Positions 22,116 through 44,565 are shown, counted from the first letter of the stretch. The stretch: DNA of 64,000 bases from Candidatus Dormiibacterota bacterium (GCA_027306595.1 DAHUZI010000016.1:962-64961); one strand, 5' to 3'. The notes: a model not told the origin generated them from the sequence alone. Program-made: numbers and translations.

Positions 22116-23327
22116 TCACGCCGAACGGTCGGCTGCCTCCCCACCCGGCCCCGGGCGCGTGGATTGGGGGTGCGCGGCGCCAAGGCGCCCGGCCTCCCCC
22201 CCGACCGAGACCCCGGCGTGCTGGGCCAGTGCCACGATGAGGGCCTGGAGGGCGGCCACGTCGGCGGCCGCCCCGGCGGCGTCGGCCGCCGGCGGGGCGC
22301 CGCCGCGGACCGCGTCGGCGAAGGCCCCCAGCTGCCGAAGGAACCCGCTCTCGTGCCCGGCCCGCGACACGGTCTCGGTCCGCAGCGCGCCCGCCTGCCG
22401 CTCCACGGTCAGTCGGCTGCGTGCCTCGAGGAGGTAGGGGGCGGCAACGTCGAGCTGCACCCGCGCGTCGGTCCCGAGAACGGCGATCGCCTCCAGGTAC
22501 TCGGGCTGCTCGGGCAGCCAGTTCCACGAGAGGACAAGGCGGCAGTCGGCGCCGAGATCGGCGACCGCCAGGATGCAGGGTGGCGTCGCGGCCGCCGGCG
22601 GCCAGGGCCACCATTCGGCGTGCTCGAAGCGATCGGGGAGCCCAAAGCCGAGGGCGCGCAGCAGGGCGAACTCATGCACCACCGAGCCGAGAAGGAGTCC
22701 GCGGTAGGCGCGCCCCCACGGCTCCGGCATCGGCCCGATCGCCGCGCTGACCGCTCGCGCCTCGGCGGCCTCCGCCGCGGCCACCAGCGCCGGGTCGGCG
22801 TCGGTGTCGGGCTCCAGCCGCAGGTGCGCCACCTGGGAGGCGTCGGCCGGATGGCAGACGGTGACCCTGACAAGCCGTCGGGCTCGCACCGACCGGCAGG
22901 CCTGGGCCGCGGCCCCGACCAGGGGGTCGTAGGTCTTCATGGTCCCGACCTGGAGGACGAGCCCGGCGGCGGCGGCCTGCCGTCCGAGCGCCCGGGCGGC
23001 GGCCACGGTGGCGCTGAGCGGCTTCTCCGCCAGGACGTGTCGACCGGCGGCCAGGCAGGCCCGGGCCAGCTCCGCGTGGCTCCCGGGGGTGGCGAGGAGG
23101 ACCGCCTCCACGCCCGCGGCTCCGATCGCCGCCGCGGGCGACGTGGTCGCCAGCACCGAGGCGCCGTGCTCCGCGGCCACCCGCCGCGCCCTCGAGGGCG
23201 AGGCGTCACAGACGGCTCGGAGCGTGAACCGCCGGCGGAGCCTGCGGACCGCTGGCAGGTGGACGCCCTGGGTGACCGTGCCGGCCCCGATCACCGCCAG
23301 CCCCACCGGCTCGGGATCAGAACCCAT
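22116..23327 (-). CDS. Gfo/Idh/MocA family oxidoreductase (inositol dehydrogenase, IolG-like)
   Basis: Rossmann motif VIGAG and HVLAEKP; operonic with iolE. Confidence 0.85.
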   Translation of the reverse strand: MGSDPEPVGLAVIGAGTVTQGVHLPAVRRLRRRFTLRAVCDASPSRARRVAAEHGASVLATTSPAAAIGAAGVEAVLLATPGSHAELARACLAAGRHVLAEKPLSATVAAARALGRQAAAAGLVLQVGTMKTYDPLVGAAAQACRSVRARRLVRVTVCHPADASQVAHLRLEPDTDADPALVAAAEAAEARAVSAAIGPMPEPWGRAYRGLLLGSVVHEFALLRALGFGLPDRFEHAEWWPWPPAAATPPCILAVADLGADCRLVLSWNWLPEQPEYLEAIAVLGTDARVQLDVAAPYLLEARSRLTVERQAGALRTETVSRAGHESGFLRQLGAFADAVRGGAPPAADAAGAAADVAALQALIVALAQHAGVSVGGEAGRLGAAHPQSTRPGPGGEAADRSA

Positions 23328-24303
23328 GTCGCCGCACCACCTCGCGATTGTGCCGCTGCTCGGCGGTGATGGCGGCCACCGTGGTGTGAGGGCCCGGGAT
23401 CACGTCCTGCTCGACGACCAGCCACCCCGCGTAGTCGGAGCCGCAGACCGCACCAAGGAAGGCCTCGACGTCGAGGTCGCCGGCGCCCAAGGCGCAGAAC
23501 ACGCCCTGGCTCCAGACCGATTCCATCGACGCCCCCTCGGCGACGCACCGCTGGAGCACATCCATCCGGCAGTCCTTGACATGGAGATGGTTGATGCGCG
23601 CCCGCCAGCTGTCCCAGGCGCGCATCGGGTCGCCGCCGCCGAGGAGGAGGTGTCCGGTGTCCAGGCAGAGCCCGATGTCGGTGAGCTCGAGCAGCCGCTC
23701 GATCTCGACCGGGGCCTCGACGTAGGTGCAGGCATGGTGGTGGAAGGTGGGCTCCAGGCCGCGGCGGCGAACGTGATCCGCGGCGATGCTGACCCGCGCG
23801 GCGAACGCCCCCCAGTCCGCATCCGGCAGGCGGATCTCGGGCCGGTCCCACCCCCGGCCGGGGTTGGCTCGTCGAATCGGCGAGCCGGCGTCGGCCAGCG
23901 TCGGCTTCGGCGGCGGGGCGCCGGCCGCGGCAGCGGCGACGAAGAGGTCGAGGAGCCGGTCCAGCTCGCCGAGGTCGTCCGCGAAGCCGGCGGCGTCGGG
24001 GAACCGAAGCGAGATCCATCCGCCAGCCAGGGCAAGGCGGTGGGCCGTCAGGTTCTCCGCGATCGCGTCCACATCGCCGAGGTATCCGGGGGGACCGAGG
24101 TCGACGCCGTCGTAGCCGGCGTCAGCGAGGTCGGTCAGCAGGACGTCGGCGGCGACGAACGGCGGACCGGTCGGGGCCAGCTCGAACACCCCGTAGCTGA
24201 CCGGTGCATTCGCCACCGCGCGCTCGGTCCCGCCGCGGCGGACCCCAGCCGGCCTGCGCTCCTGGCGACCGCTGCCGGTCCCGCCCGGCTCAGAGCGGTT
24301 CAT
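23317..24303 (-). CDS. iolE: Myo-inosose-2 dehydratase IolE-like (xylose isomerase-like TIM barrel)
   Basis: 3' part of track ORF 23317..25170: ANAPVSYGVFE, FHHHACTYVE, LCLDTGH, HLHVKD, FCALGAGDLD and GWLVVEQD. ATG 24303 overlaps the glpD stop. Confidence 0.85.
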   Translation of the reverse strand: MNRSEPGGTGSGRQERRPAGVRRGGTERAVANAPVSYGVFELAPTGPPFVAADVLLTDLADAGYDGVDLGPPGYLGDVDAIAENLTAHRLALAGGWISLRFPDAAGFADDLGELDRLLDLFVAAAAAGAPPPKPTLADAGSPIRRANPGRGWDRPEIRLPDADWGAFAARVSIAADHVRRRGLEPTFHHHACTYVEAPVEIERLLELTDIGLCLDTGHLLLGGGDPMRAWDSWRARINHLHVKDCRMDVLQRCVAEGASMESVWSQGVFCALGAGDLDVEAFLGAVCGSDYAGWLVVEQDVIPGPHTTVAAITAEQRHNREVVRRHGF

Positions 24304-25898
24304 AGCGGCGCCGGCCCCCCGGCCGTGCGAAGCAGGGCCGCCACCCTGGCGATGACCGGCGCCTCCGCCAGCCCGCGCAGCCCCACGGTTGTCCGCCGCC
24401 GGAGCACGTCGTCCGGGGTCAGCGCCCACTCCTCGTCGACCGCCCGGTGGACCTGGGCCCAGATGTCGGGTCCCCGGGGGTCGATCCGCTCCAGCCCCCC
24501 AGGCTGGGCGGCACCGCGGGCGACCAGGCGGTTCGCGTCGCTCCCGTACAGGTGCACGAGGTGGCGGCAGACGCTCGGATCCAGCGCCGGATACCGGCGC
24601 TCGAGGCGGGCGGCGGCGATCCGAAGCGCCTCGGGGGTGGCCAGCGTCCCCCCGGGCAGGGGCGCGTCGCTCAGGGTCAGGTGCCGCACCCCCAAATCTG
24701 CCCGCAGCATCGCCAGCGTCTCGTGGGCGATCCGCCGATGGGTGGTGAGCTTGCCACCCGCGACCGACACCATCCCCGTCGGCCCTCGCACCAGGAGGCG
24801 CTCGCGTGGCGCTCGGGCTGGACCTCCCGGGAGGCGCGGCAGCACCCGCAGGCCGGCGAAGGTGGCCCGGATCGCCCCGGGGGCGAGCGTCGGCATGGTG
24901 AGGGCGGAGCGCGCCTCGTCGAGGACCGCAGCAACGTCGGCGTCGGTCACCGCGACCGCGTCGGGGTCGCCCTCGTAGGCGGTGTCGGTCGTGCCCAGGA
25001 GCAGCATGCCCTCCCAGGGGATGGCGAACGTCACCCGGTAGCGGTCGACGGGGGCGACCACCGCGGCCCGCCAGGGCTCGTCGAGCGGGAGCACGACATG
25101 GACGCCCTTGCTGAGCTGGGCCAGCGGTGGCGCGGCAGGGTCCTCCAGCCGCCGCACCGCGTCCACCCATGGACCGGCGGCGTTGATGACTGTGCGGGCC
25201 GCGACGCGAATCGGGTCGGGGGAGCCGGCGGCAACCACGGTGGCCGCGTGCCGATCGCCGGGGACCCGATCCAGCTCGACGACCCGCGCGTAGTTCAGGA
25301 CCACCGCACCGGCCAGGGCCGCACCGCGGGCGGTGGCGAGGCAGAGACGGTGGTCGTGGGTGGTGGCATCCATGAACAGCCCGGCGCCGATGCAGTCATC
25401 GGTCCGCAGGGCTGGGACCAACCGGCAGGCGCGGGCGGGGGTGAGCAACCGGGCGTGCGCGTCGCGGAATGCGGAGAGGCTGGCGTAGAGCAGGAGGCCG
25501 GCCGCCAGGGTGGGGGCGCGATGGGGGCCGCCACGATAGGCGGGGAGGAGGAAGGGCAGCGGCCGCACCAGGTGCGGCGCGACCCGGTGCACCAGGACCC
25601 GGCGCTCGTGATGCGCCTCGCGCACACGACGGATGTCACCGGTGGCGAGGTAGCGGAGTCCCCCATGCACGAGCTTGGATGACGCCGCCGACGTCGCGCC
25701 GCCGAGGTCACGCGCATCCAGGAGGGCCACACGAAGGCCTGCGGCGCTCGCCTCCAGCGCGATGCGGCTGCCGATGATGCCGGCACCGATGATGAGCAGG
25801 TCGAAGCATCCGCGAGTCAGCTCGGTGAGCGCATCGGCACGGCGCCATGGTGTGGGCGGGGGAATGATCACCGCATCACCGGACCCGGTCTTCACCAC
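24300..25898 (-). CDS. glpD: FAD-dependent glycerol-3-phosphate dehydrogenase/oxidase
   Basis: LIIGAGIIG, TSAASSKLVHGGLRYL, INAAGPWVD, SKGVHVV, GTTDT, VAGGKLTT and DVLRRRT. Start uncertain (GTG 25898 or 25871). Confidence 0.92.
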   Translation of the reverse strand: MVKTGSGDAVIIPPPTPWRRADALTELTRGCFDLLIIGAGIIGSRIALEASAAGLRVALLDARDLGGATSAASSKLVHGGLRYLATGDIRRVREAHHERRVLVHRVAPHLVRPLPFLLPAYRGGPHRAPTLAAGLLLYASLSAFRDAHARLLTPARACRLVPALRTDDCIGAGLFMDATTHDHRLCLATARGAALAGAVVLNYARVVELDRVPGDRHAATVVAAGSPDPIRVAARTVINAAGPWVDAVRRLEDPAAPPLAQLSKGVHVVLPLDEPWRAAVVAPVDRYRVTFAIPWEGMLLLGTTDTAYEGDPDAVAVTDADVAAVLDEARSALTMPTLAPGAIRATFAGLRVLPRLPGGPARAPRERLLVRGPTGMVSVAGGKLTTHRRIAHETLAMLRADLGVRHLTLSDAPLPGGTLATPEALRIAAARLERRYPALDPSVCRHLVHLYGSDANRLVARGAAQPGGLERIDPRGPDIWAQVHRAVDEEWALTPDDVLRRRTTVGLRGLAEAPVIARVAALLRTAGGPAPL

Positions 25899-25958
25899 GC
25901 GGGGGAATGTGCGCGATGCCAAGGGCGATCCCCTGCGAGGGACTGGTACCATGCGCCC

Positions 25959-28754
25959 GTGGCCATGCGCGCGGCGCCATTCGCCAAGCCCACGCCGTCA
26001 TCGACGGCCGCCGCAGTCGACGCGCCGACGCGGATGTTCGTGGTGCCCCACAGCCATTGGGATCGCGAGTGGTACCAGCCATTTCAGCGCTTCCGCATGC
26101 GACTTGTCGACCTCGTCGACCGCGTGCTGGATCTGGCCGAGCGCGACCCCGGGTTCTGCTTCACCTTCGACGGGCAGCTGGCCGCGGTCGACGACTACCT
26201 CGCCATCCGGCCCCAATCCGAGGAGCGCGTGCGGGAGCTGGTGGAGCGGGGCCAGCTCGCCATCGGACCCTGGCGGGTGCTCGCCGACGAGTTTCTCTGC
26301 TCCGGCGAGTCGCTGGTACGCAACCTCGAGCGCGGCATGCGGCGAGCCGAGCAGCTGGGGGGATGCCTGGCCGCCGGCTACCTCCCCGACGAGTTCGGCC
26401 ATGCCGCGCAGATGCCTCAGATCCTCAGGCGTGCGGGCCTCGCCCGGGCGGTGGTCTGGCGCGGGGTGCCCGCCGCCATCCGCCGCCATGCCTTCGTCTG
26501 GAGGGCTCCCGATGGGTCGGAGGTGCTGGCGGAGTACCTGCCTGACGGCTACGGGCACGCGGCCTTCCTGCTGGCACCGGGCGGCAACCCGGTGGAGCGG
26601 CTGCGGCGGGTGGCAGCCGATGTCGCGCCCTACTTCGGCTCGGGGCCGATCCTCGCCATGTGCGGCGGGGACCACACGAGCCCGATGCCGGACCTGGTGG
26701 CCGCGGTCGCGGCCCTGCAGCGCTCCGCCCCCGAGTTCCGCCTCGAGCTCGCCACCCTGGCCGGATACCTGGAGGCGACCGGGGCGGCGACGCGCCACGA
26801 GGCCGAGCGCGGCCGGTTGCCGCGCTGGTCCGGTGAGCTGCGTTCCGCCGCTCGGGCGAACCTGCTGGTCGGGGTGACGTCGACCCGGGTTGCGGTCAAG
26901 GCGGCCTGCACGCGCGCGGAGCGGCTCCTGGAGCGGTTCGCCGAGCCTCTCGACGCCCTCTGGGGAACGGCGGAAGCCGCGCCCTATCTCGAGCTCGCCT
27001 GGGACCGGGTGGTCGACTCCGCCGGGCACGACTCCGTCACCGGCTGCGGGATCGACGCGGTGGCGGAGGAGGTGGCCGGCCGACTCCATCAGGCGGCCCA
27101 GCTGGCCGAGGGCGTCACCGACCGGGTCTGCGCGACCCTCGCGGCTGGCGTGCCCGCCGGTGCGCTGTGCGTCGTCAACCCCTCGCCGATCCCTCGCGAG
27201 GGGCTGGTTGAGCTCGACATCCCCCTCGGCGACGCCCCTGGCGTGGTCGTCCTCACCGACGCGGGGGGACGAGCGCTGGCCACCCAGGAGCTGGCCCGGA
27301 CCGGTGGGGTGCTCCACACCGAGCGGCTGGACGCCAGGCGCCTGGTCCGCTTCGCCCGCCGCATCCATGGGGGCGAGCTCTTCGGCCTGCAGGTGCTGGG
27401 GTGGCGCATCGACCGGGGACGGCGGAGGCTCGTGATCGACCTCGGGCAGGGCGACGAGCTCGCGGCCGACGAGCCCTGGCGCCTGGCCAGCGAGCTCGAG
27501 GCCGAGGCCGAGGCGGTCCCGGGGGCCTGGCAGGTCACGCTGACGGCCCGGCCGCGGCAACGGCTCGCCGCCGTGGTCAGCGCCCCCGCGCTCGGGTGGA
27601 CCGCCTACCGGCCCGTCGCCGGCTCGGCCGTGCCCGCCCATCCGGTGACCGCGGCGACCGGCCGGCTCGACAACGGTCGGGTCTTGGTCTCGGTCGAGCC
27701 CGCGGGCACCCTGCGGATCGTCGGCCAGGGCCAGGAGTGCACCGGGATCGCGGCGCTCGTCGACGGCGGGGACGCCGGCGACGCCTACAACTACGCGCCG
27801 CCGGCCCGCGATCGACTGGTCGCCGAGCCGCAGGCGGTGACCGTCGCCGTGCGCCGAGCCGGTCCAGTCGTCGGGGAGCTGGTCATCACCCGCACCTACC
27901 GCTGGCCGGCCGGTCTGGCTGCGAAGGGCCGGTCGCGGAGCGCTCGCGGCCGGACCGCGGTCGTCGAGACGGTCTGCAGCCTTCGGGCGGGCGAGCCGTT
28001 CGTGCGCATAGCGCTCTCGTTCACGAACCCGTGCACGGACCACCGGCTCCGCCTCCACCTGCCGCTGCCCCGTCCGGCCACCGGCCTGGCCACCGAGGGG
28101 CAGTTCGCCGTGGTGGAGCGCGTTGCGGGGCCGATCGAGGGCGGATCCGGCGAGGTCCCCTTGGCCACCCACCCCGCCCGCGGTTTCGTCGACGCCGGTG
28201 GACTGGCGGTGCTCCTCGACCAGGTGAGCGAGGTCGAGCTCCTCGACGGGCGGGCGCTCGCGGTCACGGTGGTGCGGGCGATCGGCCAGATCAGCCGGAA
28301 CGACAACCGCTACCGGGAGGAGCCGGCCGGCCCTGAGGTCGCGACCCCGGGCGCGCAGTGCCTGGGACCGGTCGCGACCACCGTCGCCTGCTACCCCCAC
28401 CCGGGCGGCTGGGCGGAGGCCGACGTCGTCGGCGTCGCCGAGCGCTATCACCACGGGCTGCGCGCCATGCCGGGGACGGCGGTCGCCGGTTCGATCCCGT
28501 CCGGGTCGGCCGGTCTCACCATCGAGGGGGCCGGCGTGGTGCTGAGCGCGCTGCGCCGCCGCGACGGCTGGCTCGAGCTGCGCCTCGTGCTGGAGTCGCC
28601 CGAGCCGGGGGTGGCGAGGATCCGCGGCGCCTTCACGCAGGCGCGGCGGGCGGACCTGCTCGGACGCCCGCTGGAGCCGATCGCCGTCCGCGACGGGTCG
28701 ATCGCGCTCGCGCTCGCCCCCTTCGAGATCGCGACCTGCCACCTGCGCCGCTGA
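25959..28754 (+). CDS. GH38 alpha-mannosidase (MngB-like), no signal peptide
   Basis: VVPHSHWDREWY Zn motif, FDGQ, GESLVRNL, YLPDEFGH (nucleophile), HDSVTGC and C-terminal LAPFEIAT. Confidence 0.95.
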   Translation: MAMRAAPFAKPTPSSTAAAVDAPTRMFVVPHSHWDREWYQPFQRFRMRLVDLVDRVLDLAERDPGFCFTFDGQLAAVDDYLAIRPQSEERVRELVERGQLAIGPWRVLADEFLCSGESLVRNLERGMRRAEQLGGCLAAGYLPDEFGHAAQMPQILRRAGLARAVVWRGVPAAIRRHAFVWRAPDGSEVLAEYLPDGYGHAAFLLAPGGNPVERLRRVAADVAPYFGSGPILAMCGGDHTSPMPDLVAAVAALQRSAPEFRLELATLAGYLEATGAATRHEAERGRLPRWSGELRSAARANLLVGVTSTRVAVKAACTRAERLLERFAEPLDALWGTAEAAPYLELAWDRVVDSAGHDSVTGCGIDAVAEEVAGRLHQAAQLAEGVTDRVCATLAAGVPAGALCVVNPSPIPREGLVELDIPLGDAPGVVVLTDAGGRALATQELARTGGVLHTERLDARRLVRFARRIHGGELFGLQVLGWRIDRGRRRLVIDLGQGDELAADEPWRLASELEAEAEAVPGAWQVTLTARPRQRLAAVVSAPALGWTAYRPVAGSAVPAHPVTAATGRLDNGRVLVSVEPAGTLRIVGQGQECTGIAALVDGGDAGDAYNYAPPARDRLVAEPQAVTVAVRRAGPVVGELVITRTYRWPAGLAAKGRSRSARGRTAVVETVCSLRAGEPFVRIALSFTNPCTDHRLRLHLPLPRPATGLATEGQFAVVERVAGPIEGGSGEVPLATHPARGFVDAGGLAVLLDQVSEVELLDGRALAVTVVRAIGQISRNDNRYREEPAGPEVATPGAQCLGPVATTVACYPHPGGWAEADVVGVAERYHHGLRAMPGTAVAGSIPSGSAGLTIEGAGVVLSALRRRDGWLELRLVLESPEPGVARIRGAFTQARRADLLGRPLEPIAVRDGSIALALAPFEIATCHLRR

Positions 28755-28788
28755 GCGGCGTCCCGAGCCCGGTCCTGCGGAGCCGGGC

Positions 28789-30015: not shown

Positions 30016-30049
30016 CGCCGGGGGACCCGGCGGCGGCCGCGGCGCCTGG

Positions 30050-31195
30050 TCATGACGCCGCCCCCGGCAGGGTCGCGGTGCTGGCCGCGGTGGTTCGCTG
30101 CGTCGGCGGTCCGCCCAGGGCAGCGCCGACCAGCTCGCCGCTCTCCTTCGCGTACAGGAGGGCGCGGGCGAGGGCGACGACCAGCCAGACCTCGGATCCG
30201 AGCGGCGGTGCCTCATCCTCGGCGACCACCGCCTGGAGGGGACCAGCGGCGCTCTCTAGGTCCACCAGGATGGAGGTGCCGAGGTGCTCGGTGATGACGA
30301 CCCGGCTCCGCACCCCGCCGGCCACCGGTCCGGGGCGGAGCGCGACGTATTCGGGGCGAGCGCCGAGGACGACCGGCTCGCCCTCGCGCACCGCATCGGC
30401 CGTGTTCGGGGGCAGCGGGACGGTATCGTCCCCGATCCGCAGCAGGCCCCCGACGACATGGGCGTCGATCAGGTTCATCGGGGTGTTGCCGATGAACGAG
30501 GCCACGAACAGGTTGGCGGGCCGATGGAAGACCTCGACAGGGCTCCCGATCTGCCGGATCGTGCCGCGATCCATCACCGCCATGCGATCGGCGACGGCCA
30601 GGGCCTCGGCTTGGTCGTGGGTGACATACACGGTGGTGGTGGTGAGGTCCGAGTGCAGGCGCTTGAGGAAGGTGCGGGCCTCCATCCGCAGGCGGGCGTC
30701 CAGGTTCGACAGCGGCTCGTCGAACAGGAACACGTGGGGGTGGCTTGCGACTGCGCGGGCCAGGGCCACGCGCTGCTGCTGCCCGCCGCTGAGCTGGGCG
30801 GGGCGGCGATCCATCATCCCCTCGAGACCGAGGTGGGCCCCGGTCTCGGCCGCCCGCTGACGTCGGGGGCCGCGACCCATCCGCTGGATCTTGAGCGGAT
30901 AAGCGATGTTGTCGGCCACATCCATGTGCGGGTAGAGGGCGTAGTCCTGGAAGACCATCGCCACCTTGCGGGCGCCCGGGGGCAGGCGCGTGACGTCGCG
31001 GTCGCCGATGGAGATGGTGCCATGGGTCGGTGCCTCCAGGCCTGCCAGGGTGCGCAGGAGGGTCGTCTTCCCGCATCCGGACGGACCCAGCAGGGCGAAG
31101 AAGGAGCCATCCGCGATCTGGAGGTCGACCTCCTGGAGGGCGCGTACTCCGTTGGGGAACACCTTGGTCAGCTTGGCAACGGTGATGCCCGCCAT
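30050..31195 (-). CDS. Carbohydrate ABC transporter ATP-binding subunit (MalK/UgpC-like)
   Basis: GPSGCGKT, LSGGQQQRVAL, DEPLSNLD, YVTHDQAEA and a TOBE C-terminus. Confidence 0.97.
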   Translation of the reverse strand: MAGITVAKLTKVFPNGVRALQEVDLQIADGSFFALLGPSGCGKTTLLRTLAGLEAPTHGTISIGDRDVTRLPPGARKVAMVFQDYALYPHMDVADNIAYPLKIQRMGRGPRRQRAAETGAHLGLEGMMDRRPAQLSGGQQQRVALARAVASHPHVFLFDEPLSNLDARLRMEARTFLKRLHSDLTTTTVYVTHDQAEALAVADRMAVMDRGTIRQIGSPVEVFHRPANLFVASFIGNTPMNLIDAHVVGGLLRIGDDTVPLPPNTADAVREGEPVVLGARPEYVALRPGPVAGGVRSRVVITEHLGTSILVDLESAAGPLQAVVAEDEAPPLGSEVWLVVALARALLYAKESGELVGAALGGPPTQRTTAASTATLPGAAS

Positions 31196-33020: not shown

Positions 33021-34398
33021 CGACGATCTTGTCCAGCTGGCCCACATACGTGGCCAGGGCAGCGTGGACACTCATGCCGGTCGCAAGGTTCTGGGCGAGC
33101 TGCTGGATGAGAACCGACACCTGCGGGTACACCGCCAGCGAGGGCCGGTAAGCTGTGATCGGAAGGCACTGCTGGGCGATGAACGTGAGCATCGGGTGGT
33201 GCTGGAAGGCCACCTTGTTGACGATCGAGTTCGCCGAGATGAACTGCTTGAGCGGCTCGTACCGCAGCAGCGACGCGGTGGATTGCTCGTAGGTGAGGAA
33301 GCGCCACGCCAGCGCCGGGTGCTTGGTGTTGGGATTGAGGGTGGTGCCGCCGCCACCCGATAGGGTGACGAAGTCCTGACCGCGGAATCCCGCTCCCGGC
33401 TTCTGCGCCGGGATAAGGGTCCATGCCACGTTCTGGTTGCGGCCCGGCATCGGGTAGATGCCGGTGGAGTTGATCACCGATTCGTAGAGGTACTCGCTCT
33501 CAAGGTAGATCCCGACCTTGTTCTGGGAGAAGGCCTGGAATGTCTCGTTGCGCCCGTTGGGGCCAAGCTGGAGCTGCGAGTTGGCCAGACCGGTGGAGTA
33601 GATGGTGTGGTAGAACCCGGCCGCCGCCCGCATCGCCGCGGTGTTGCCCTGCCACTTGCCGGTGCTCTCGTTGTAGATGAGCTGCCCGGCTCCGGCGAGG
33701 ATCGGCAGGTAGCCCTGGAGCGTGGTCGCCTCGCCCATCTGCGCGCCGCCATCGATCTGGAGCGCCTCGATGCCGGGGTCCTTCTGCTGGAGGGTCTTGG
33801 CGGCTGCGATCACGTCCGCCCAGCTGGTGGGATGCCAGGGCATCTGGATCCCGGCATTGCGGAAGAGCTGGGTGTTGTAGAAGAGGACCCGGCCGTCGGT
33901 GCCGCCCGGGATCCCGTACTGCTGGCCCTGGAACTCGGTGATCGCCTGGACGGTCTGGGGGATGTTCTTCCAACCCGCCCACTTCAGGGCCTGAGGACCG
34001 ACGAGCTGATCGATCGGCTTGAGGTACCCCGCCTGGGCGAACTCCCCGTAGTAGGGCCCATCCAGGTCGAAGATGTCAGGACCGCCGCCGGCCTTGATGT
34101 CGAGGGCCAGGGCGTTGGCGTAGTCCTGGCCACTCACGCCGCTGCCGATCAGCTTGATGGTGACCGGCTGGCCCTTGGCGCGCATGCTCTTCTCGAAGCC
34201 GGGGATGACGTCCTTGGTCAGCCAGACGGCCTCGGCCGCGTTCTTGCCGTGGAGGACAGCGTTTATCTCGACCGTGAGCGTGACCGGCGCCGCCTCGGTC
34301 TTCCCCATGACCGTTGCGCCTGTACCTACGATCGAAGCCAGGAGCACAGTCGTCCCCAGGGCGGCCAGGCTCCGGCGCCGCGGTCGCAACTTCACCAT
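32995..34398 (-). CDS. Carbohydrate ABC transporter extracellular solute-binding protein (family 1)
   Basis: Signal peptide, GGGPDIF, YGIP, LFYNTQLF, PTSWAD, SGGGG and AWRFL. RBS GAGGAGGAG. Confidence 0.93.
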   Translation of the reverse strand: MVKLRPRRRSLAALGTTVLLASIVGTGATVMGKTEAAPVTLTVEINAVLHGKNAAEAVWLTKDVIPGFEKSMRAKGQPVTIKLIGSGVSGQDYANALALDIKAGGGPDIFDLDGPYYGEFAQAGYLKPIDQLVGPQALKWAGWKNIPQTVQAITEFQGQQYGIPGGTDGRVLFYNTQLFRNAGIQMPWHPTSWADVIAAAKTLQQKDPGIEALQIDGGAQMGEATTLQGYLPILAGAGQLIYNESTGKWQGNTAAMRAAAGFYHTIYSTGLANSQLQLGPNGRNETFQAFSQNKVGIYLESEYLYESVINSTGIYPMPGRNQNVAWTLIPAQKPGAGFRGQDFVTLSGGGGTTLNPNTKHPALAWRFLTYEQSTASLLRYEPLKQFISANSIVNKVAFQHHPMLTFIAQQCLPITAYRPSLAVYPQVSVLIQQLAQNLATGMSVHAALATYVGQLDKIVGAAHVANS

Positions 34399-34461
34399 AG
34401 CCCTACTCCTCCTCGCTTCGCGAGCGGCACCCCATCCCTCGCGGGATTCCTCTCGCCCTAT

Positions 34462-34475
34462 TGTCTTGACATCCT
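34462..34475. promoter_or_regulatory. Putative IolR (GntR) operator upstream of the ABC operon
   Basis: TGTCTTGACATCCT matches KGWCHTRACA, the consensus I recall for Corynebacterium IolR. It shares CTTGACATCCT with the site at 35341. Confidence 0.7.
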
Positions 34476-34536: not shown

Positions 34537-35289
34537 TCAGCGCACCACAAGCCGCATCTCGAACGTGTACCGGTCGGCGCGGTAGCAGTGCGAGCCATAC
34601 TCGATTGCGCGCCCAGATGCGTCGAACGCGGTCCGGTCCATCGTGAGCACGGTCAGCCCTCGGGGGCCGTCGAGCAGGCGGGCCTCGGCGGGCGTGGCGG
34701 CGCGGGCGCCGAGGGTCTGCTCGGCCACCTGCGGCTGGATCCCCGCGGACCGCAGGACCGCGTACAGGCCCCGGGCCTCGAGCCCGGGGGGCTCGAGCTC
34801 GACCAGGCCCGCCGGGAGGTAGTTGCGCATCAGGCTGAGCGGGACCCCGTCGGCGGATCGCAGCCGTTCGAGGAACTGGACGCCTGCGCCCCGGCTGAGC
34901 CCGAGGGCGTGGGCGACGACGCTGTCGGCGGGGATGGTGGTCACGGTCATCACCGTGGTGGTGGGCCGCCGACCGGCGGCCAGGAGATCGTCGTAGAGGC
35001 TGCTGAGCTGGAGCGGCCGGCGGATCCGCTGGGGGACGACCACGGTGCCGATGCCCCTGCGGCGGACCACGACCCCCTGCTCGATGAGGCGGTCGATCGC
35101 CTGACGGATCGTGGGCCGGCTGACGCCGATGCGCTCGGCGAGCTCCACCTCGCTCTCGAGGCGGGACCCGGCCGGCAGCGCGCCCCCATCGATGGCCGAG
35201 GTGAGCTGCTGGGCGATTTGGAAGTACAGCGGGACCGGACTGGTCCGGTCGATGCCGCTCCCGGGGGCCGAGGCGGGCACGGCGGTCAT
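34537..35289 (-). CDS. iolR: GntR/HutC (UTRA) family regulator, probable IolR
   Basis: IDRTSPVPLYFQIA, SEVELAERIGVSRPTIRQAI and a UTRA C-terminus; divergent from iolC. Confidence 0.88.
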   Translation of the reverse strand: MTAVPASAPGSGIDRTSPVPLYFQIAQQLTSAIDGGALPAGSRLESEVELAERIGVSRPTIRQAIDRLIEQGVVVRRRGIGTVVVPQRIRRPLQLSSLYDDLLAAGRRPTTTVMTVTTIPADSVVAHALGLSRGAGVQFLERLRSADGVPLSLMRNYLPAGLVELEPPGLEARGLYAVLRSAGIQPQVAEQTLGARAATPAEARLLDGPRGLTVLTMDRTAFDASGRAIEYGSHCYRADRYTFEMRLVVR

Positions 35290-35333: not shown

Positions 35334-35371
35334 AGGATGACTTGACATCCTCATCTCGAGCCGCCTATCCT
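35334..35371 (+). promoter_or_regulatory. iol operon promoter with IolR operator over the -35 element
   Basis: Imperfect palindrome AGGATGACTTGACATCCT (35334-35351) contains TGACTTGACA. TTGACA(35342)-18 bp-TATCCT(35366). Confidence 0.75.
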
Positions 35372-35519
35372 CGGACGGACGGTCAGGCCGAGCTCGACCG
35401 GCCGCCCGCGGCGGCAGCTCCGTCAGGTGATCGCGCGAGAGGGGTGGGGCAGGCGGGCAATCGGGGGCCGGGCGGCGTTCCGCCCGTGCGGTGCGCGCCG
35501 CCGGGCGGGAGCGCGCCCC

Positions 35520-36557
35520 GTGAACCTCCAGGTGGATGCGACACGGGTCGGAGGACGCGCTACGGAAACGGACGGCGAGGGTGCGGCTGAGGGCGGCGCG
35601 TCGGAGGACGAACCGTTCGACGTCCTGACGACCGGGCGCGTCGGTGTGGACCTCTACCCCCTCCAGAGCGGCGTTGGCCTGGAGGACGTCACCACCTTCG
35701 GCAAGTTCCTGGGCGGCACCGCCACCAACGTCGCGGTCGCTGCGGCCCGGTTGGGGCGGCGAGCGGCGGTCATCACCCGCACCGGGGCGGATCCATTTGG
35801 TGTCTACGTCCACAAGGCGCTCCGTGCGCTCGGGGTCGACGATCGCTGGGTGAGCGCGGTGGCGGAGCTGCCCACGCCGGTCACCTTCTGCGAGCTCTTC
35901 CCCCCCGACCGCTTCCCGCTCTACTTCTATCGCACGCCCACCGCGCCGGATCTCCAGATCCGGCCTGACGACCTGGACCTCGCGGCGATCCGAGCCGCCC
36001 GGGTCTTCTGGGTCACGGCGACCGGCCTGTCCCAGGAGCCCAGCCGGTCGGCAGTCATGGCCGCGCTCGCAGCTCGGGGTCGACGCCGGCTCACCGTTCT
36101 CGACCTCGATCACCGTCCGCAATTCTGGCCTTCGATGGCGGATGCGCGGCGCGAGGTCACCGTAGCCTTGGAGCAGGTCACCGTGGCGGTCGGGAACGTC
36201 GAGGAGTGCGAGGTCGCGACCGGCACCCGCGACGCGCGGGCGGCCGCCGCCGCCCTGCTCGGGCGCGGGCTCGACCTGGCGGTGGTCAAGCGCGGGCCCG
36301 ATGGGGTCCTCGCGCGGGATCACGGGGCGGAGGTCTCCGTGCCGGCGGCCCCGATTGCGGTGGTGAACGGGCTCGGGGCCGGCGACGCCTTCGGCGGCGC
36401 CCTCTGCCACGGTCTCCTGGCGGAATGGCCGCTCGATCGGTGCCTGCGCTTTGCGAACACCGCCGGGGCGATCGTGGCCTCCCGGCTCGCCTGCGCCCAA
36501 GCTATGCCCACCGCGGAGGAGATCGACGCCGTGATGGGGGCCGGGCAGCGTGTCTGA
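35520..36557 (+). CDS. iolC: 5-dehydro-2-deoxygluconokinase
   Basis: DVLTTGRVGVDLYP, FGKFLGG, FPLYFYR, DLDHRPQFW and NGLGAGDAFGG (PfkB). Start uncertain. Confidence 0.93.
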   Translation: MNLQVDATRVGGRATETDGEGAAEGGASEDEPFDVLTTGRVGVDLYPLQSGVGLEDVTTFGKFLGGTATNVAVAAARLGRRAAVITRTGADPFGVYVHKALRALGVDDRWVSAVAELPTPVTFCELFPPDRFPLYFYRTPTAPDLQIRPDDLDLAAIRAARVFWVTATGLSQEPSRSAVMAALAARGRRRLTVLDLDHRPQFWPSMADARREVTVALEQVTVAVGNVEECEVATGTRDARAAAAALLGRGLDLAVVKRGPDGVLARDHGAEVSVPAAPIAVVNGLGAGDAFGGALCHGLLAEWPLDRCLRFANTAGAIVASRLACAQAMPTAEEIDAVMGAGQRV

Positions 36558-37482
36558 CGACCGGGCGCGCCGCATCGCCCAGCTGCGGCTGCGCCGGCCG
36601 GAGGCGATCCAGGAGGCCGCGCGCCGCCGCCGGCGGCTGGCCCGGCCGGACCGCCCCGATGCGGTGGTGATCGTCGCCGCCGACCACTCGGCCCGGGGGG
36701 TGTTCCGGGCCGGGGCCGACCCGCTGGCGATGGCCGACCGGGGCACTCTGCTGGATCGGGTCCTGGTGGCCCTGGAGCGCCCCGGGGTCGACGGCCTGCT
36801 GGCGACCGCCGACGTGATCGAGGACGTTCTCGCCGTCGGGATTCTGGAGGGGCGCCCGGTGCTCGACGACCGACTCGTGTTCGGGTCCATGAATCGGGGC
36901 GGGCTGACGGGCACGGTCTTCGAGATCGATGATCGCTTCACCGGCTTCTCCGCGGCGGGCGTCGCCGCCCTTGGGCTCGACGGCGGGAAGATGCTCCTCC
37001 GCATCGACCCCGACGACGCCGCGGCGGTCCGGACGTTGGAGACGTGCGGCCGGGCGGTGACGGAGCTCGCCGAACGTGAGCTGATCGCCCTTGTGGAGGT
37101 CTTTGTCTCCCATCGAACCCGGACCCGGGTGCGCAACGACCTCGCGCCGGAGTCAGTGATGCGCTCGATTGCCATCGCGTCGGGGCTTGGCTCGACCTCC
37201 GCCTACACCTGGCTCAAGGTGCCGGTGGTCGACCGCATGGAGGAGGTGATGCGGGCCACCCTGCTCCCGTCCCTGATCCTCGGGGGGGAGGTGAGCGGTG
37301 ACCCGGGGGAGGCCCTGGCGCGCTGGGGCGGGGCACTCCGCCTTCCCAATGTATGCGGGGTGGTGATGGGGCGCTCGATGCTCTATCCCGCCGATGGGGA
37401 TGTGGCCGGAGCGGTGGACCGGGTCGTTGAGGAGGTTCGCACCGCCCGGCCGCGGGCAGACGGCCGGGCGGTCATGGCGTGA
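36550..37482 (+). CDS. Actinobacterial iol-cluster DeoC/LacD-like aldolase (Cgl0159-like)
   Basis: AADHSARG, GSMNRGGL, FEIDDRFTG, GGKMLLRID and GLGSTSAYTWLK. Confidence 0.88.
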   Translation: MSDDRARRIAQLRLRRPEAIQEAARRRRRLARPDRPDAVVIVAADHSARGVFRAGADPLAMADRGTLLDRVLVALERPGVDGLLATADVIEDVLAVGILEGRPVLDDRLVFGSMNRGGLTGTVFEIDDRFTGFSAAGVAALGLDGGKMLLRIDPDDAAAVRTLETCGRAVTELAERELIALVEVFVSHRTRTRVRNDLAPESVMRSIAIASGLGSTSAYTWLKVPVVDRMEEVMRATLLPSLILGGEVSGDPGEALARWGGALRLPNVCGVVMGRSMLYPADGDVAGAVDRVVEEVRTARPRADGRAVMA

Positions 37483-38399
37483 CCCACCCCCTGCACCTCG
37501 CGCGGCCGCCGGGCGGGCCGACCCCGGCCGTAACCCCATCGGTCGCGGGCTGGACCTACTGCGGCCTTCGCATCGTCGAGCTCACGCCCGGAGGCTCCCT
37601 CGAGCTGACCACCGGGTCGTGCGAGCTGGTGATCCTCCCGCTGGCCGGAGCCTGCCGAGTCGGCTGCGACGGTCGCGAGTTCGAGCTGGCCGGACGACCC
37701 GACGTGTTCTCTCGGGTGACCGACTTCGCGTACGTGCCGCGCGACGCGACGGTCCGAATCGAGAGCGCTGGCGGCGGGCGCTTCGCGCTCCCCAGCGCCG
37801 AGGCCCGCACCCGCCGTGAACCCGTCCATCGACCCGCGGAGTCGGTCGCCGTCGAGGTTCGTGGTCGGGGGGCGGCCACCCGTCAGGTGAACAACTTCCT
37901 CGATCCCAGTGTGCCGATCGCCGATCGGCTCATCGCCGTTGAGGTGCTGACCCCCGAGGGCAGCTGGTCGAGCTACCCACCCCACAAGCACGACACGCCG
38001 GGCCCGGGCGAGGCGAGGCTCGAGGAGATCTACTACTTCGAGATCGCGCGCCGCGCTCCGGCCGGCCACCGCCGCGTCGGCGAGGGGTTCGCCCTCCAGC
38101 GCCTCTACACCGCCGACCGCTCAATTGACCTGTGCGCCGCGGTTGCCCACGGCGACGTCGTCCTCATCCCCCGCGGCTACCACGGGCCGTCAGTGGCGCC
38201 CCCCGGCTATGACCTCTACTACCTCAACGTCCTGGCCGGACCGGCCGCGGACCGGACGATGGCCTTCTGCGACGATCCCGCCCATGCGTGGGTGCGAGGT
38301 GCCTGGAGCGGTCAGCGTGCCGATGCCCGCCTCCCGATGACGTCCGCCGCCGGCGCCGTGGTGATTGCCCCCGACGGATCCGGTCCGGGGACGGCGTGA
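37479..38399 (+). CDS. iolB: 5-deoxy-glucuronate isomerase
   Basis: EVLTPEGSWSSYPPHKHD, LEEIYYF, PRGYHGP and YYLNVLAGP. Confidence 0.97.
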   Translation: MTHPLHLARPPGGPTPAVTPSVAGWTYCGLRIVELTPGGSLELTTGSCELVILPLAGACRVGCDGREFELAGRPDVFSRVTDFAYVPRDATVRIESAGGGRFALPSAEARTRREPVHRPAESVAVEVRGRGAATRQVNNFLDPSVPIADRLIAVEVLTPEGSWSSYPPHKHDTPGPGEARLEEIYYFEIARRAPAGHRRVGEGFALQRLYTADRSIDLCAAVAHGDVVLIPRGYHGPSVAPPGYDLYYLNVLAGPAADRTMAFCDDPAHAWVRGAWSGQRADARLPMTSAAGAVVIAPDGSGPGTA

Positions 38400-40294
38400 T
38401 GCGGGAGCCCGGCGCGGGGAGCTCCGCCGAGACCCGGCGCTTGACCATGGCCCAGGCGCTCGTCCTCTACTGTTCACGGCAGTACACCGATGCAGCCGGC
38501 GAGCGACGACGGCTCATCCCGCGTGTGCTCGGCATCTTCGGCCACGGCAACGTCGCCGGGCTGGGCGCCGCCCTCGATGAGTTCCGCAACCAGATGCCGT
38601 ACGTGCAGGGGCGCAACGAGCAATCGCTCGTGCACGCGGCGGTGGCCTACGCCAAGGCGTCGCGGCGGCGCTCGGTCCTCGCGGTGACCTCGTCGATCGG
38701 TCCCGGTGCCACCAACATGGTGACCGGCGCCGCGCTGGCGACGATCAACCGGCTCCCGGTCCTGCTCCTTCCCGGTGACGTCTACGCCACCCGGCGACAA
38801 GGCCCGGTGCTCCAACAGCTCGAGCACCCCCTGGCGGGGGATCTCAGCGTGAACGACTGCTTCCGCCCGGTCGCGCGCTTCTTCGACCGGATCTGGCGAC
38901 CCGAGCAGCTGCTCACCGCCCTCCCGGAGGCGATGCGGGTGCTCACCAGTCCGGTCGAGGCGGGGGCGGTCGTGCTGGCCCTGCCCCAGGACGTGCAGTC
39001 CGAGGCCTACGACTACCCGGATGCGTTCTTCTCCGAACGGACGTGGACGATCGAGCGAGTCGAGCCCTCGCCCGGCCAGGTCGAGCAGGTGGCAGCCCTG
39101 CTGGCGGCGGCGACGCGACCCCTAATCGTCGCCGGGGGCGGGGTCGTGTACGCCGAGGCGGAGGCGGCCCTGGCGAGCCTCGCCGGTCGGTTCGGCATCC
39201 CGGTGGCGGAGACGTTCGCCGGCAAGGGTGCCGTCCAGCAGGCGCGGTGGTGGGGGCTGGGCGGGCTGGGCGTGGAGGGCAATCCCGCCGCCAACCAGGT
39301 GGCCACCAGCGCTGATCTCATCGTTCAGGTCGGGACCCGGCTCACCGATTTCGCCACCGCCTCCCAGTCCTTGTTCCAGCACCCGTCGGTGCGGTTCGCG
39401 TCGATCAACCTGAGCGACCGCGATGCTCGCAAGCAGGGGGCGGCGCCCATGGTCGCCGACGCCCGCCTGGGCCTGGAGGCGCTCGGGCGGGCGGCGGCGG
39501 TCGCCGGCGTGCGCCCCCGCCCGGCCTGGGAGCGCGAGATCCGCGCGGCGCTGGCCCGCTGGGGCCCGCTGCGCACAGCCGCCCTCGCGCCGCAAGGGCG
39601 CCCGCTGACCCAAGGGCAGCTGATCGGGCTCCTCCAGGCCGCCGCTCGGGATGGGGATACGATCCTCGCCGCCGCCGGCGGTGCGCCCGGCGACCTCCTC
39701 AAGGTCTGGGACGCGACGGGCGGTCGCCGCTGCCACCTGGAGTTCGGCTATTCGTGCATGGGGTACGAGATCCCGGCCACCCTCGGGGTGCGACTGGCGC
39801 AACCGGAGGGCGAGGTCATCGCCCTGATCGGAGATGGGACCTTCCTCATGCAGCCGTCGGAGATCGCCACGGCGGTCCAGGAGGGGCTTCGGATCACGGT
39901 TGTCGTGGCCGAGAACCACGCCTTCCACAGCATCGACCGTCTGCAGGGGTCCCGAACCGGTCGGCGCTTCGGCACCGAGTTCCGGCTCCGCCGCCCCGGC
40001 GCGGCAGCGGCCGAGGGGGCGTACCTCCCGCTCGATCTCGCCGCCGTGGCTCGGGGGCTGGGGGCGACGGCGCTGCGCGTCGACACCGCCGAGGCGGCGC
40101 GCTCCGCTCTGGCGACCGCGCGCCGCCAGCCCGGCCCGACCGTCGTCGTCGCCGAAGTCGCGCCCCACGAGGACCTTCCCCCGGCAGGGACCTGGTGGGA
40201 TGTGGCGCCGCCGGCGGTCGCCGGGCTGCCCGAAGTCGGCCCGCTGCGCCAGGCCTACGACCGCGACCGGCTCCTGCAGCGATGGCACGGGTGA
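38399..40294 (+). CDS. iolD: 3D-(3,5/4)-trihydroxycyclohexane-1,2-dione acylhydrolase
   Basis: RLTMAQAL, GIFGHGNVAGLG, SSIGPGATN, LQQLE, EFGYSCMGYEI and ThDP motif GDGTFLM. Confidence 0.97.
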   Translation: MREPGAGSSAETRRLTMAQALVLYCSRQYTDAAGERRRLIPRVLGIFGHGNVAGLGAALDEFRNQMPYVQGRNEQSLVHAAVAYAKASRRRSVLAVTSSIGPGATNMVTGAALATINRLPVLLLPGDVYATRRQGPVLQQLEHPLAGDLSVNDCFRPVARFFDRIWRPEQLLTALPEAMRVLTSPVEAGAVVLALPQDVQSEAYDYPDAFFSERTWTIERVEPSPGQVEQVAALLAAATRPLIVAGGGVVYAEAEAALASLAGRFGIPVAETFAGKGAVQQARWWGLGGLGVEGNPAANQVATSADLIVQVGTRLTDFATASQSLFQHPSVRFASINLSDRDARKQGAAPMVADARLGLEALGRAAAVAGVRPRPAWEREIRAALARWGPLRTAALAPQGRPLTQGQLIGLLQAAARDGDTILAAAGGAPGDLLKVWDATGGRRCHLEFGYSCMGYEIPATLGVRLAQPEGEVIALIGDGTFLMQPSEIATAVQEGLRITVVVAENHAFHSIDRLQGSRTGRRFGTEFRLRRPGAAAAEGAYLPLDLAAVARGLGATALRVDTAEAARSALATARRQPGPTVVVAEVAPHEDLPPAGTWWDVAPPAVAGLPEVGPLRQAYDRDRLLQRWHG

Positions 40295-41364
40295 GCGTCA
40301 CCAAGGTGGGGGCGCTGCCGGGGGGGCCACCGCCACCGGCGATGCGCGCCGCCGTCTTCGCCGGGCCGGGCCGGGTGGTGATTGCCCAGCGTCCGGTGCC
40401 GGCCCTAGGCGACGATGACGTGCTCCTGGCGGTCGATGGGTGCGGGATCTGCGGCACCGACCTTCACATCCTCGAGGACCCGCCCGGCCATCCGGCGACT
40501 CCAGGGGTCGTCCTCGGTCACGAGATGATCGGCCGGGTTGCCGCGCGCGGGCCAGCCGCCCGCGGCCTGAGCGATGGCGACCGCGTCGCGGTGGCGCCGA
40601 ATCTCCCCTGCGGCTGGTGCCGGTTCTGCAAACTCGGGGCGCCCAGCCACTGCGAGCACCTCAGCGCCCTGGGCATCTTCCGCGACGGGGGGCTGGCGGA
40701 ATGGGTGACCGCCCCGGCGTCGGCCTGCCATCGCATCGGCGAGGCGGTTCCCACCGCGGTCGCCGCGCTGGCGGAGCCGCTCTCCTGCGTCCTCAACGGC
40801 GTCGACCAGGCGCAGCCCCTGGCCGGCGAGGTCGCCCTCGTCCTCGGCGCCGGCGCCATCGGGCTCCTCTTCGTCGCCGTCCTGCGGGCGAGCGGGGTGC
40901 GATGCGTCGTGGTCGAGCCAGTCGCAGCCCGCCGCGCCCTCGCCGAGCGGCTGGGGGCGGTCGCGGCCGTTGACCCGGAGGCGGTCGGGGCCGAGGCCGA
41001 CCTCGACGGCCTCCTGCCGGAGGGCGCCGACCTCGTCGTCGACGCGGTCGGTTCCCAGCTCGCCGTGGCCGTCCCCCGGACGCGGCCCCGGGGCCGGGTG
41101 GTCCTGTTTGGCATGGACAGCCGGGCCCGCGCTGCGGTCACCCAGAACGACCTCACCCGGCACGAGATCCGGCTGCTCGGCAGCTATGTCGGCGACCACG
41201 CCGTGCCGCGGGCGGTGCGGCTGCTGGAGTCGGGCCTGGTGGACGTCGAGCCGATCGTCAGCCGCGTCTGGCCCCTCGAGCGGCTGCCCGATGCGCTGAC
41301 CGCTCTCCGCGCCGGGCGGGCGGTGAAGATCGTGCTCGCCCCGGCGCTCAACCCCGGGGCCTGA
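40291..41364 (+). CDS. Zn-dependent (MDR) polyol/alcohol dehydrogenase
   Basis: CGICGTD, GHE, CGWCRFC...C, EPLSC and GAGAIG. GTG overlaps the iolD stop. Confidence 0.92.
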   Translation: MSVTKVGALPGGPPPPAMRAAVFAGPGRVVIAQRPVPALGDDDVLLAVDGCGICGTDLHILEDPPGHPATPGVVLGHEMIGRVAARGPAARGLSDGDRVAVAPNLPCGWCRFCKLGAPSHCEHLSALGIFRDGGLAEWVTAPASACHRIGEAVPTAVAALAEPLSCVLNGVDQAQPLAGEVALVLGAGAIGLLFVAVLRASGVRCVVVEPVAARRALAERLGAVAAVDPEAVGAEADLDGLLPEGADLVVDAVGSQLAVAVPRTRPRGRVVLFGMDSRARAAVTQNDLTRHEIRLLGSYVGDHAVPRAVRLLESGLVDVEPIVSRVWPLERLPDALTALRAGRAVKIVLAPALNPGA

Positions 41365-44561: not shown

Positions 44562-44565
44562 CGCC

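Follow-up and report, generated by a model that had tools for sequence, protein, structure and literature searches.

We describe a 19.3-kb block of genes at positions 22,116 to 41,364 of a 64,000-nucleotide stretch of DNA from a Candidatus Dormiibacterota bacterium (GCA_027306595.1, DAHUZI010000016.1:962-64961; the whole stretch is referred to below as the window). It joins an ABC importer, a PHP-fold metallohydrolase, a GH38 alpha-mannosidase and a glycerol-3-phosphate dehydrogenase gene (glpD) to genes for inositol catabolism (iol genes). Two observations carry our analysis. A core of genes for a solute-binding protein (SBP), two permeases, an ATPase and the PHP hydrolase, usually with a GH38 gene and often with genes for an IolE-like protein, a Gfo-type dehydrogenase and a GntR regulator, recurs across the Actinomycetota, and three modules that are dispersed in congeners of the window's organism are now joined as one insertion in the window. 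We tentatively read the block as one regulon-like catabolic unit with an upper and a lower pathway, for which glycerophosphoinositol (GroPIns) and its alpha-mannosides would be the best candidate substrate, a reading that we regard as plausible but somewhat short of probable.

The window's genome (G000) is a 2.6-Mb metagenome-assembled genome (MAG) that is 76% complete. Because the G+C content of the window is 65-77%, genes were called via third-position G+C, and they were identified with Pfam, NCBIfam and PDB sequence searches. Every gene that an earlier annotation of this DNA, made from the sequence alone (the sequence-only reading), had named was found between 22116 and 41364 in the place it had assigned. 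The translational coupling that it described is real: the TGA of glpD overlaps the ATG of the iolE-like gene (ATGA, 24303-24300), and the stop of the latter overlaps the start of the Gfo gene by 11 nt. The block additionally holds genes for a GntR/UTRA regulator and a Zn-dependent alcohol dehydrogenase. From iolC through the aldolase gene, iolB and iolD to the alcohol dehydrogenase gene, successive genes overlap by 1-8 nt, and 34 bp separate the ATPase gene from the PHP gene.

The recurrence of the core was examined in an even sample of 200 genomes from the actinobacterial class of the Nonomuraea genome G058, plus G058 itself as the seed (201 in total; G, L and C numbers are our own labels for genomes, loci and contigs). 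A PHP orthologue (E ≤ 1e-40) was present in 15 of the 201 genomes, the seed included, giving 14 new loci. In 13 of these the orthologous ABC genes lie directly upstream of the PHP gene, the exception being L149 in G104. A GH38 gene accompanies the PHP gene in 11 of the 14 loci, a Gfo gene in nine, an IolE-like gene in seven and a GntR gene (at least 50% identity) in seven. The series iolC-aldolase-iolB-iolD lies within 10 kb in one locus, and glpD was found near the PHP gene in none of the 14. Across whole genomes, iolB scored above its cut-off in all 14 PHP carriers versus 67 of the 201 genomes sampled (Fisher p ~7e-8 without the seed, related genomes not being independent), and in five of the 14 it lies on the same contig as the PHP gene, at most ~30 kb away. 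The iolB counts, both here and for the second survey below, and the counts on 40 relatives of G000 include the unpublished genomes G010, G013, G032, G035, G045, G096, G104, G113, G119 and G125. At L150 (G282, 11877-19703), the importer is partly duplicated, with a tandem pair of ATPase and permease genes upstream of the PHP gene.

The second survey was a search with a PHP alignment, which gave at least 587 confirmed matches, and the best 80 were kept. Among these 80 loci, an orthologous SBP gene is present in 21 (41-76% identity), a same-type GH38 gene in 14 (44-65% identity), Gfo and IolE-like genes together in five, and iolC, the aldolase gene and iolB in three. L082, L104 and L107 carry the series SBP-permease-permease-ATPase-PHP-IolE-like-Gfo-GH38 on one strand, with or without a leading GntR gene, and at L113 the shorter series PHP-IolE-like-Gfo-GH38 has no importer next to it. 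This operon is divergent from iolC-aldolase-iolB, with or without iolD, in L082, L107 and L113. As the same set recurs in unrelated genomes, the gene combination is more than chance. An alpha-mannosidase-type enzyme is encoded within 10 kb in 17 of the 21 SBP-bearing loci, comprising 11 with a MngB-like GH38, five with an Ams1-type GH38 and one with a GH63 enzyme; the other four have none within that distance. The Ams1-type gene directly follows the PHP gene in L038, L040, L042, L058 and L084 (the Pfam annotation was made on L058, from G045), and at L037 a GH63 MGH1-like hydrolase stands instead of GH38. iolB was found in 18 of 23 ABC- or GH38-linked genomes versus 15 of 27 others. The remaining ~55 of the best 80 loci are mostly from Streptosporangiaceae and Trebonia MAGs, in which the PHP gene lies beside unrelated genes. 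GlpD gave a match in three of the 80 loci: two, L035 and L036, were treated as duplicates of the G003 and G001 contigs, both from congeners, and the third, at L084, is the sole match in the 78 non-congener loci and was not counted as linkage (35% identity, 8.6 kb off). L035 and L036 have the gene order of the window's genus, yet their taxonomic labels clash (Candidatus Dormiibacterota versus Verrucomicrobiia), and at least one label is probably wrong.

We compared G000 with 40 relatives, of which G001, G002 and G003 are its congeners. A full-length PHP orthologue (61-63% identity) is present only in G001 and G003; in the other relatives what is matched is the generic PHP core or part of the protein, the latter at 38-40% identity. 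The unit of SBP, permease, permease, ATPase and PHP genes, GH38 and glpD is kept in G001 and G003, between unrelated flanks: Peptidase S58 on one side in both genomes, and on the other side ArsR/AHSA1 in G001 and DUF6885 in G003. The gntR gene and the iolC-aldolase-iolB-iolD operon, with or without the alcohol dehydrogenase gene, sit elsewhere in G001, G002 and G003. The IolE-like/Gfo pair is on a further contig in G001, and the IolE-like gene stands alone on a short contig in G003. In G002 (81% complete), PHP, GH38, glpD, IolE-like and above-cut-off glycerol kinase genes were all not found. The genes coxS-coxL-coxM-coxD(AAA)-coxE(VWA) are contiguous in all three congeners, with the same flanks as in the window. 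In the window, the block lies exactly between coxM (end 41407) and the AAA gene (start 22022), with gaps of 42 and 93 bp, and every block gene is single-copy in the G000 assembly. The cox-like operon is thereby split into coxS-L-M (41407-45300) and coxD-E (19838-22022). The joining of dispersed modules inside another operon is independent evidence that they work together. The coxD/E genes now lie 93 bp downstream of the Gfo gene on the same strand, and read-through from the glpD operon may occur.

The block might instead consist of unrelated modules placed together by chance or by a chimeric assembly, as the modules are dispersed in the congeners and the genome is an incomplete MAG. Set against this are the occurrence of the same gene set in another phylum, the translational coupling and the assembly evidence: independently built contigs of run X1, which may be the source sample, tile the block and bridge both junctions, and a contig of X4, a second sample, bridges junction 1 with no differences. 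For X3 and X5, no piece listed spans either junction, a result that carries no weight. Because independent contigs bridge the junctions, a MAG chimera is unlikely, and we consider chance as a whole very improbable. Many 20-26-nt "joints" in the read-run comparison were dismissed as noise from other organisms. G+C falls to 65-69% over the transporter genes (window 30001-34000), and as low first-position G+C is common to the G001 orthologues, we attribute this dip to protein composition, not to foreign origin.

In the pathway that we propose, the CUT1-type ABC importer would take in a soluble inositol conjugate, from which the cytoplasmic PHP-fold metallohydrolase would cut a PHP-labile group, most likely phosphodiester-linked glycerol phosphate, and the GH38 alpha-mannosidase would strip alpha-mannose. 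The Gfo-type dehydrogenase and the IolE-like dehydratase would begin the oxidation of the released myo-inositol; iolD, iolB, iolC and the Cgl0159-type aldolase would complete its breakdown, and in this genus glpD would take the glycerol-3-phosphate. The candidate substrates would be the head groups of deacylated phosphatidylinositol (PI) and PI mannosides (PIMs). As the link between the importer and the PHP gene is the tightest, the imported compound presumably bears a PHP-labile group. That a mannosidase is so often present, and can be exchanged for another type, speaks for an alpha-mannosyl residue. Release of inositol is favored by the IolE-like/Gfo pair, by the GntR gene and by the strict co-occurrence with iolB, and glpD suggests glycerol phosphate in this genus. 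We infer the substrate, the PHP chemistry, the SBP ligand and the order of the steps from sequence. The sequence-only reading had proposed salvage of such head groups from GH38, PHP, glpD and iol genes. What stands is a conserved unit of PHP hydrolase, ABC importer and GH38 tied to inositol catabolism, an association that recurs in the Actinomycetota, whereas the link to glpD is confined to the genus.

The inositol-catabolic genes are of two kinds. iolC, iolB and iolD pass their NCBIfam equivalog cut-offs (Table 1), and the dehydratase and dehydrogenase genes are more divergent. The earlier label IolE was partly borne out, as the protein misses the cut-off of its equivalog model and its best PDB relatives are nevertheless IolE proteins (9zmu and 3cny, E ~1e-24). 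Its gene is the sole good IolE match in G000, and because the module's IolE-like gene is the only one genome-wide in G047 and G056, the protein is probably the inositol pathway's dehydratase. The label IolG-like fits more loosely, since the TIGR04380 match is confined to the Rossmann domain, and a better IolG-like gene (250 bits, cut-off 355) is present on another G000 contig, C121. That gene belongs to a second sugar/inositol-like cluster (L153, ~22000-33000), in which lie two xylose-isomerase-fold TIM barrels and a further Gfo gene, together with genes for a Zn-dependent alcohol dehydrogenase, a 2-hydroxyacid dehydrogenase, an FGGY kinase and a GntR paralogue (39% identity). The alcohol dehydrogenase gene of the block is kept in the iol operon of G001 and G002. 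The block contains no iolA. The iol operon of G001 (L123) carries an HpcH/HpaI-type aldolase gene and an aldehyde dehydrogenase gene, likely IolA, at 11826-12605 and 14603-16111. In the 76%-complete G000 assembly, the best relative of this aldehyde dehydrogenase is 51% identical, and the HpcH/HpaI-type aldolase, absent from the window's block, has no match at E ≤ 1e-20.

Several points weigh against salvage of glycerophosphoinositol and its mannosides. By its own terms, the sequence-only reading would be contradicted if GH38, PHP and glpD were unlinked to iol genes in relatives, and this is partly so: in the congeners the module does not lie beside iol genes, although the actinobacterial loci do link PHP and GH38 to iol. 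Within 10 kb, no GH38 gene was found in three of the 14 sampled loci, and iolB is missing from five of the 23 ABC- or GH38-linked genomes, one of them an isolate. The SBP matches UgpB only at E 8e-5 and over the N-terminus only, and so is not UgpB-like; the permeases are generic CUT1 proteins, and NCBIfam scans gave no specificity for the permeases or the ATPase. No further transporter is encoded in the iol operons of this genus, so the ABC system could import plain inositol. The glpD gene, linked to the module in one genus only and present there as a single copy with glpK elsewhere, may be the ordinary housekeeping gene. The fold search of the PDB with the PHP model gave no clue to a substrate, and we know of no enzymology for this PHP family. 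Its name, CehA/McbA, comes from carbamate hydrolases (PMC8292978), which makes a non-phosphate substrate possible. Finally, a FastTree phylogeny of 97 PHP sequences contains one supported clade of 51 with no ABC neighbor. Outside that clade, in favor of the reading, 39 of 44 rows are ABC-linked, and three of the five exceptions are on contigs of 8 kb or less.

As to the 51-member clade itself (L039-L114), it has lost the ABC neighbor, and its PHP genes lie beside genes for ABC-2 exporters, TetR/LysR regulators, a NaeI-like endonuclease, luciferase-like proteins and aminotransferases. These neighbors gave neither an operon link nor a functional clue.

The PHP gene encodes ~408 amino acids, as in the database form of the protein (P0001, 408 aa), and not the 475-residue maximal open reading frame (ORF) given earlier. 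In 10 diverse homologues, H153, H155, D160, H185, E210, H217, H251, D302 and H304 are invariant. We take these HxH, D, H, E, H, H and DxH columns to be the trinuclear metal site of PHP enzymes. Numerous Trp and Arg positions are likewise invariant among the homologues, and with them an N-terminal FRG(W/Y)SGG.R...ATPGYLPG motif. The protein is without a signal peptide, and its AlphaFold2 model (pLDDT 82.5) consists of an N-terminal beta-sandwich, a PHP barrel and a C-terminal beta domain. The nearest PDB folds are 3e38 and 2anu, both PHP proteins of unknown function; RNase AM and pAp phosphatase come next, and polymerases are also matched. A search of the ESM Atlas returned only unnamed clusters of the same PHP family. 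The family is large, with 2881 proteins at E ≤ 0.001 among 8000 candidates scored.

These features bear on what the hydrolase cuts. The conjugate could be of a non-phosphate kind, an inositol or mannosyl-inositol bearing an acyl, carbamoyl or similar group, with the PHP protein acting as an esterase or amidase. The origin of the family model's name points this way, as do genes in line with the ABC-PHP operon in three loci: an esterase (PF00756) and a CE4 polysaccharide deacetylase just upstream of the SBP gene (L058, 4228-5484; L042, 4499-5461) and an alpha/beta hydrolase after the PHP gene (L097, 2463-3311). Such neighbors hint at a possibly acylated natural substrate in these lineages. The presumed metal-ligand columns are nonetheless all invariant, the nearest solved folds are annotated as phosphoesterases, and we know of no candidate natural compound, so that we regard a non-phosphate substrate as distinctly improbable.

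A phosphomonoester is harder to set aside. The substrate would then be inositol (cyclic) phosphate or mannosyl-inositol-phosphate, the latter being the head group that a C-type phospholipase releases from fungal mannosyl inositol phosphorylceramide or plant glycosyl inositol phosphorylceramide; the PHP protein would be a phosphatase or cyclic-phosphate hydrolase, and glpD only a housekeeping gene. Most characterized PHP enzymes are phosphomonoesterases or nucleases, and the actinobacterial loci lack a nearby glpD, as described above for both surveys. As for GlpD itself, its PDB matches at E ≤ 1e-10 comprise four sequences, all glycerol-3-phosphate dehydrogenases or oxidases, and it aligns with 3da1, 2rgh and 2qcu over nearly the full length (E 1e-56 to 1e-61), although it misses its NCBIfam equivalog cut-off (PRK12266, 269 versus 360 bits). 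The gene is single-copy in G000, G001 and G003, with glpK on other contigs, so the window's glpD is also the only partner for glycerol kinase, which suits a housekeeping role. Outside this genus glpD is not part of the module, but it adjoins GH38 in these three genomes although the flanking genes differ, and in the window it is coupled to the iolE-like gene. Beyond this linkage and coupling, nothing separates a phosphomonoester from glycerophosphoinositol and its mannosides, and we consider it unlikely.

The transporter and the mannosidase raise a further question, namely whether the importer and the hydrolases share a substrate at all. The best PDB match of the SBP is the sugar SBP 5ci5 (E 8e-14), no NCBIfam family matched it, and at its N-terminus an RRR motif precedes a hydrophobic stretch. 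All Ugp cut-offs were missed (UgpC as in Table 1; UgpA 64 versus 335 and UgpE 67 versus 297 bits). The block has no GDPD gene, the PF03009 matches in G000 being only on contig C114, outside the window. The GH38 protein (PF01074, E 1e-37, and PF09261) has 3lvt/5kbp and 2wyh as its best PDB relatives, and its sole NCBIfam match is the MngB model, at 314 bits far under the equivalog cut-off of 1138. Plain myo-inositol or an isomer might be what the ABC system imports, with PHP and GH38 clustered merely by shared regulation and acting on mannosylglycerate, mannosylglycerol or oligomannosides. This agrees with the sugar-binder character of the SBP, with the MngB match, with the mannosyl/glucosylglycerate-hydrolase-like GH63 gene that replaces GH38 in L037, and with the lack of any other transporter in the genus iol operons or the actinobacterial clusters. 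It sits poorly with the position of the PHP gene directly after the ATPase gene in 13 of the 14 sampled loci, with ABC-PHP pairs in the five genomes where iolB was not found, and with the absence of a glycerate kinase or similar gene from the loci examined. On balance, uptake of plain inositol appears quite unlikely to us.

A shared regulator is itself a candidate feature of the block. In L060, L082 and L104, GntR orthologues (50-56% identity) stand at the head of the module or beside it, and gntR and iolC are divergently oriented in each of the four genomes of the genus. In G001 and G003, a perfect copy of the palindrome GATGTCTTGACATC lies upstream of the SBP gene. At two mismatches or fewer, the palindrome has three matches in the whole G000 assembly versus one for the reversed control, and two of these are in the block (Table 1). 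There is modest evidence in these sequences for a candidate GntR control of both the importer operon and iolC via GATGTCTTGACATC, and no copy was found in the glpD-GH38 intergenic region. The third G000 match (two mismatches, window 7380-7393) falls where two ORFs adjoin, well away from the block, and is probably chance, as is a one-mismatch copy on G001 contig C34 beside beta-lactamase and UDP-glucose dehydrogenase genes.

Table 1. Features of the block and of the cox genes on either side, in window coordinates.
Feature	Positions	Strand	Evidence and remarks
Gfo/Idh/MocA oxidoreductase, IolG-like, 403 aa	22116..23327	-	PF01408 E 4e-20; TIGR04380 66 bits, cut-off 355
IolE-like xylose-isomerase-fold TIM barrel, candidate inosose dehydratase	23317..24303	-	TIGR04379 153 bits, cut-off 290
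GlpD, FAD-dependent glycerol-3-phosphate dehydrogenase	24300..25952	-	maximal ORF, start maybe downstream; PF01266 and PF16901
Cytoplasmic GH38 alpha-mannosidase	25959..28754	+	maximal ORF; conserved N-terminus from ~ATG at 26034; PF01074 and PF09261
PHP-fold CehA/McbA-family metallohydrolase, 408 aa	28789..30015	-	NF038032 156 bits, cut-off 80; PF02811
ABC ATPase, MalK/UgpC type	30050..31195	-	PF00005 and TOBE domain; UgpC model 385 bits, cut-off 432
ABC permease 2, CUT1 type	31195..32070	-	PF00528; generic GlcU/UgpE/MalG matches far below cut-offs
ABC permease 1, CUT1 type	32070..33071	-	PF00528; generic GlcT/UgpA matches far below cut-offs
Secreted solute-binding protein (SBP_bac_1)	32995..34398	-	PF01547; AGGAGG before ATG
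Operator-like palindrome upstream of SBP gene	34460..34473		2 mismatches to GATGTCTTGACATC
GntR/HutC-type regulator (UTRA domain), candidate IolR	34537..35289	-	PF00392 and PF07702
Palindrome GATGTCTTGACATC, gntR-iolC intergenic	35336..35349		1 mismatch; overlaps -35-like TTGACA
iolC, 5-dehydro-2-deoxygluconokinase	35427..36557	+	TIGR04382 367 bits, cut-off 300
Cgl0159-like aldolase (IolJ role, predicted)	36550..37482	+	PF22649 E 4e-107
iolB, 5-deoxy-glucuronate isomerase	37479..38399	+	TIGR04378 298 bits, cut-off 205
iolD	38288..40294	+	maximal ORF; likely start 38396/38399 overlaps iolB stop; TIGR04377 777 bits, cut-off 715
Zn-dependent alcohol dehydrogenase, IolM-like	40291..41364	+	start approximate; PF08240 and PF00107; NF041097 184 bits, cut-off 450
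Flank: CoxD-like AAA and CoxE-like VWA genes	19838..22022	-	Pfam; parted from coxM by the block
Flank: CoxM-like and CoxL-like genes	41407..44561	-	Pfam

The block resembles several known systems in part. It shares with the canonical iol systems of Bacillus subtilis and Corynebacterium glutamicum iolC, iolB and iolD genes above their cut-offs, a GntR-type regulator divergent from iolC and a Cgl0159-type aldolase, the actinobacterial substitute for IolJ. It differs in that its dehydrogenase and dehydratase are divergent and travel with ABC-PHP-GH38 instead of iolCJBD, and in having neither an IolT/IolF-type transporter nor iolA; we know of no iol cluster that includes a PHP hydrolase, GH38 or glpD. 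Like the Ugp/GlpQ salvage route of Escherichia coli, the block would combine a CUT1 ABC importer of deacylated lipid head groups with a cytoplasmic phosphoesterase and glycerol-3-phosphate metabolism, but its SBP is not UgpB-like, its hydrolase is of the PHP and not the GDPD fold, and a mannosidase and inositol catabolism are attached. The E. coli MngR/MngA/MngB system likewise has a GntR/UTRA-type regulator and a cytoplasmic GH38 enzyme for a small mannosyl heteroside; the block differs in its uptake by an ABC system and not a phosphotransferase system, in its lack of glycerate metabolism and in its inositol link. In the mycobacterial route for GroPIns, uptake is by UgpABCE and cleavage by the GDPD enzyme GlpQ1; the UgpB of Mycobacterium tuberculosis binds GroPIns only moderately, and a glpQ1 mutant accumulates GroPIns (10.1101/529602, PMC12722247). 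A precedent for diesterase chemistry in the PHP fold is Sb-PDE of Sphingobium sp. TCM1, a 413-aa PHP-superfamily enzyme that prefers dialkyl phosphodiesters over monoesters. At ~410 aa it is close in length to the block's PHP protein, and it differs in being secreted and in acting on xenobiotic haloalkyl phosphates (PMC5460133).

All parts of the block belong to known families, and its logic is like that of known salvage systems; what would be new, and can be tested, is the role of a large PHP family. We found no description of the module in the literature searched, most subscription journals being outside its scope, and an existing account is possible. What emerges is a conserved operon that lends itself to testing, together with a working hypothesis on a large family of uncharacterized PHP hydrolases. 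The surveys further suggest that, in many actinobacteria, a module for conjugate uptake and not a classical iol operon supplies the first two enzymes of inositol catabolism. Among the major lipids of actinobacteria and eukaryotes are PI and its mannosides, and the recycling of their soluble head groups in soil is poorly known. It is conceivable, though we hold this with some doubt, that soil Actinomycetota and, through the joining of the modules, this Dormibacterota-labelled lineage have a dedicated pathway for deacylated PI(-mannoside) head groups, in which a new PHP-fold family of glycerophosphoinositol phosphodiesterases would replace GlpQ and would be coupled to a mannosyl-inositol-specific GH38 and to the module's own IolG and IolE. 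If so, the PI and PIM lipids of dead cells would be a significant source of carbon and phosphorus for these bacteria, and the main natural feed of their iol pathway.

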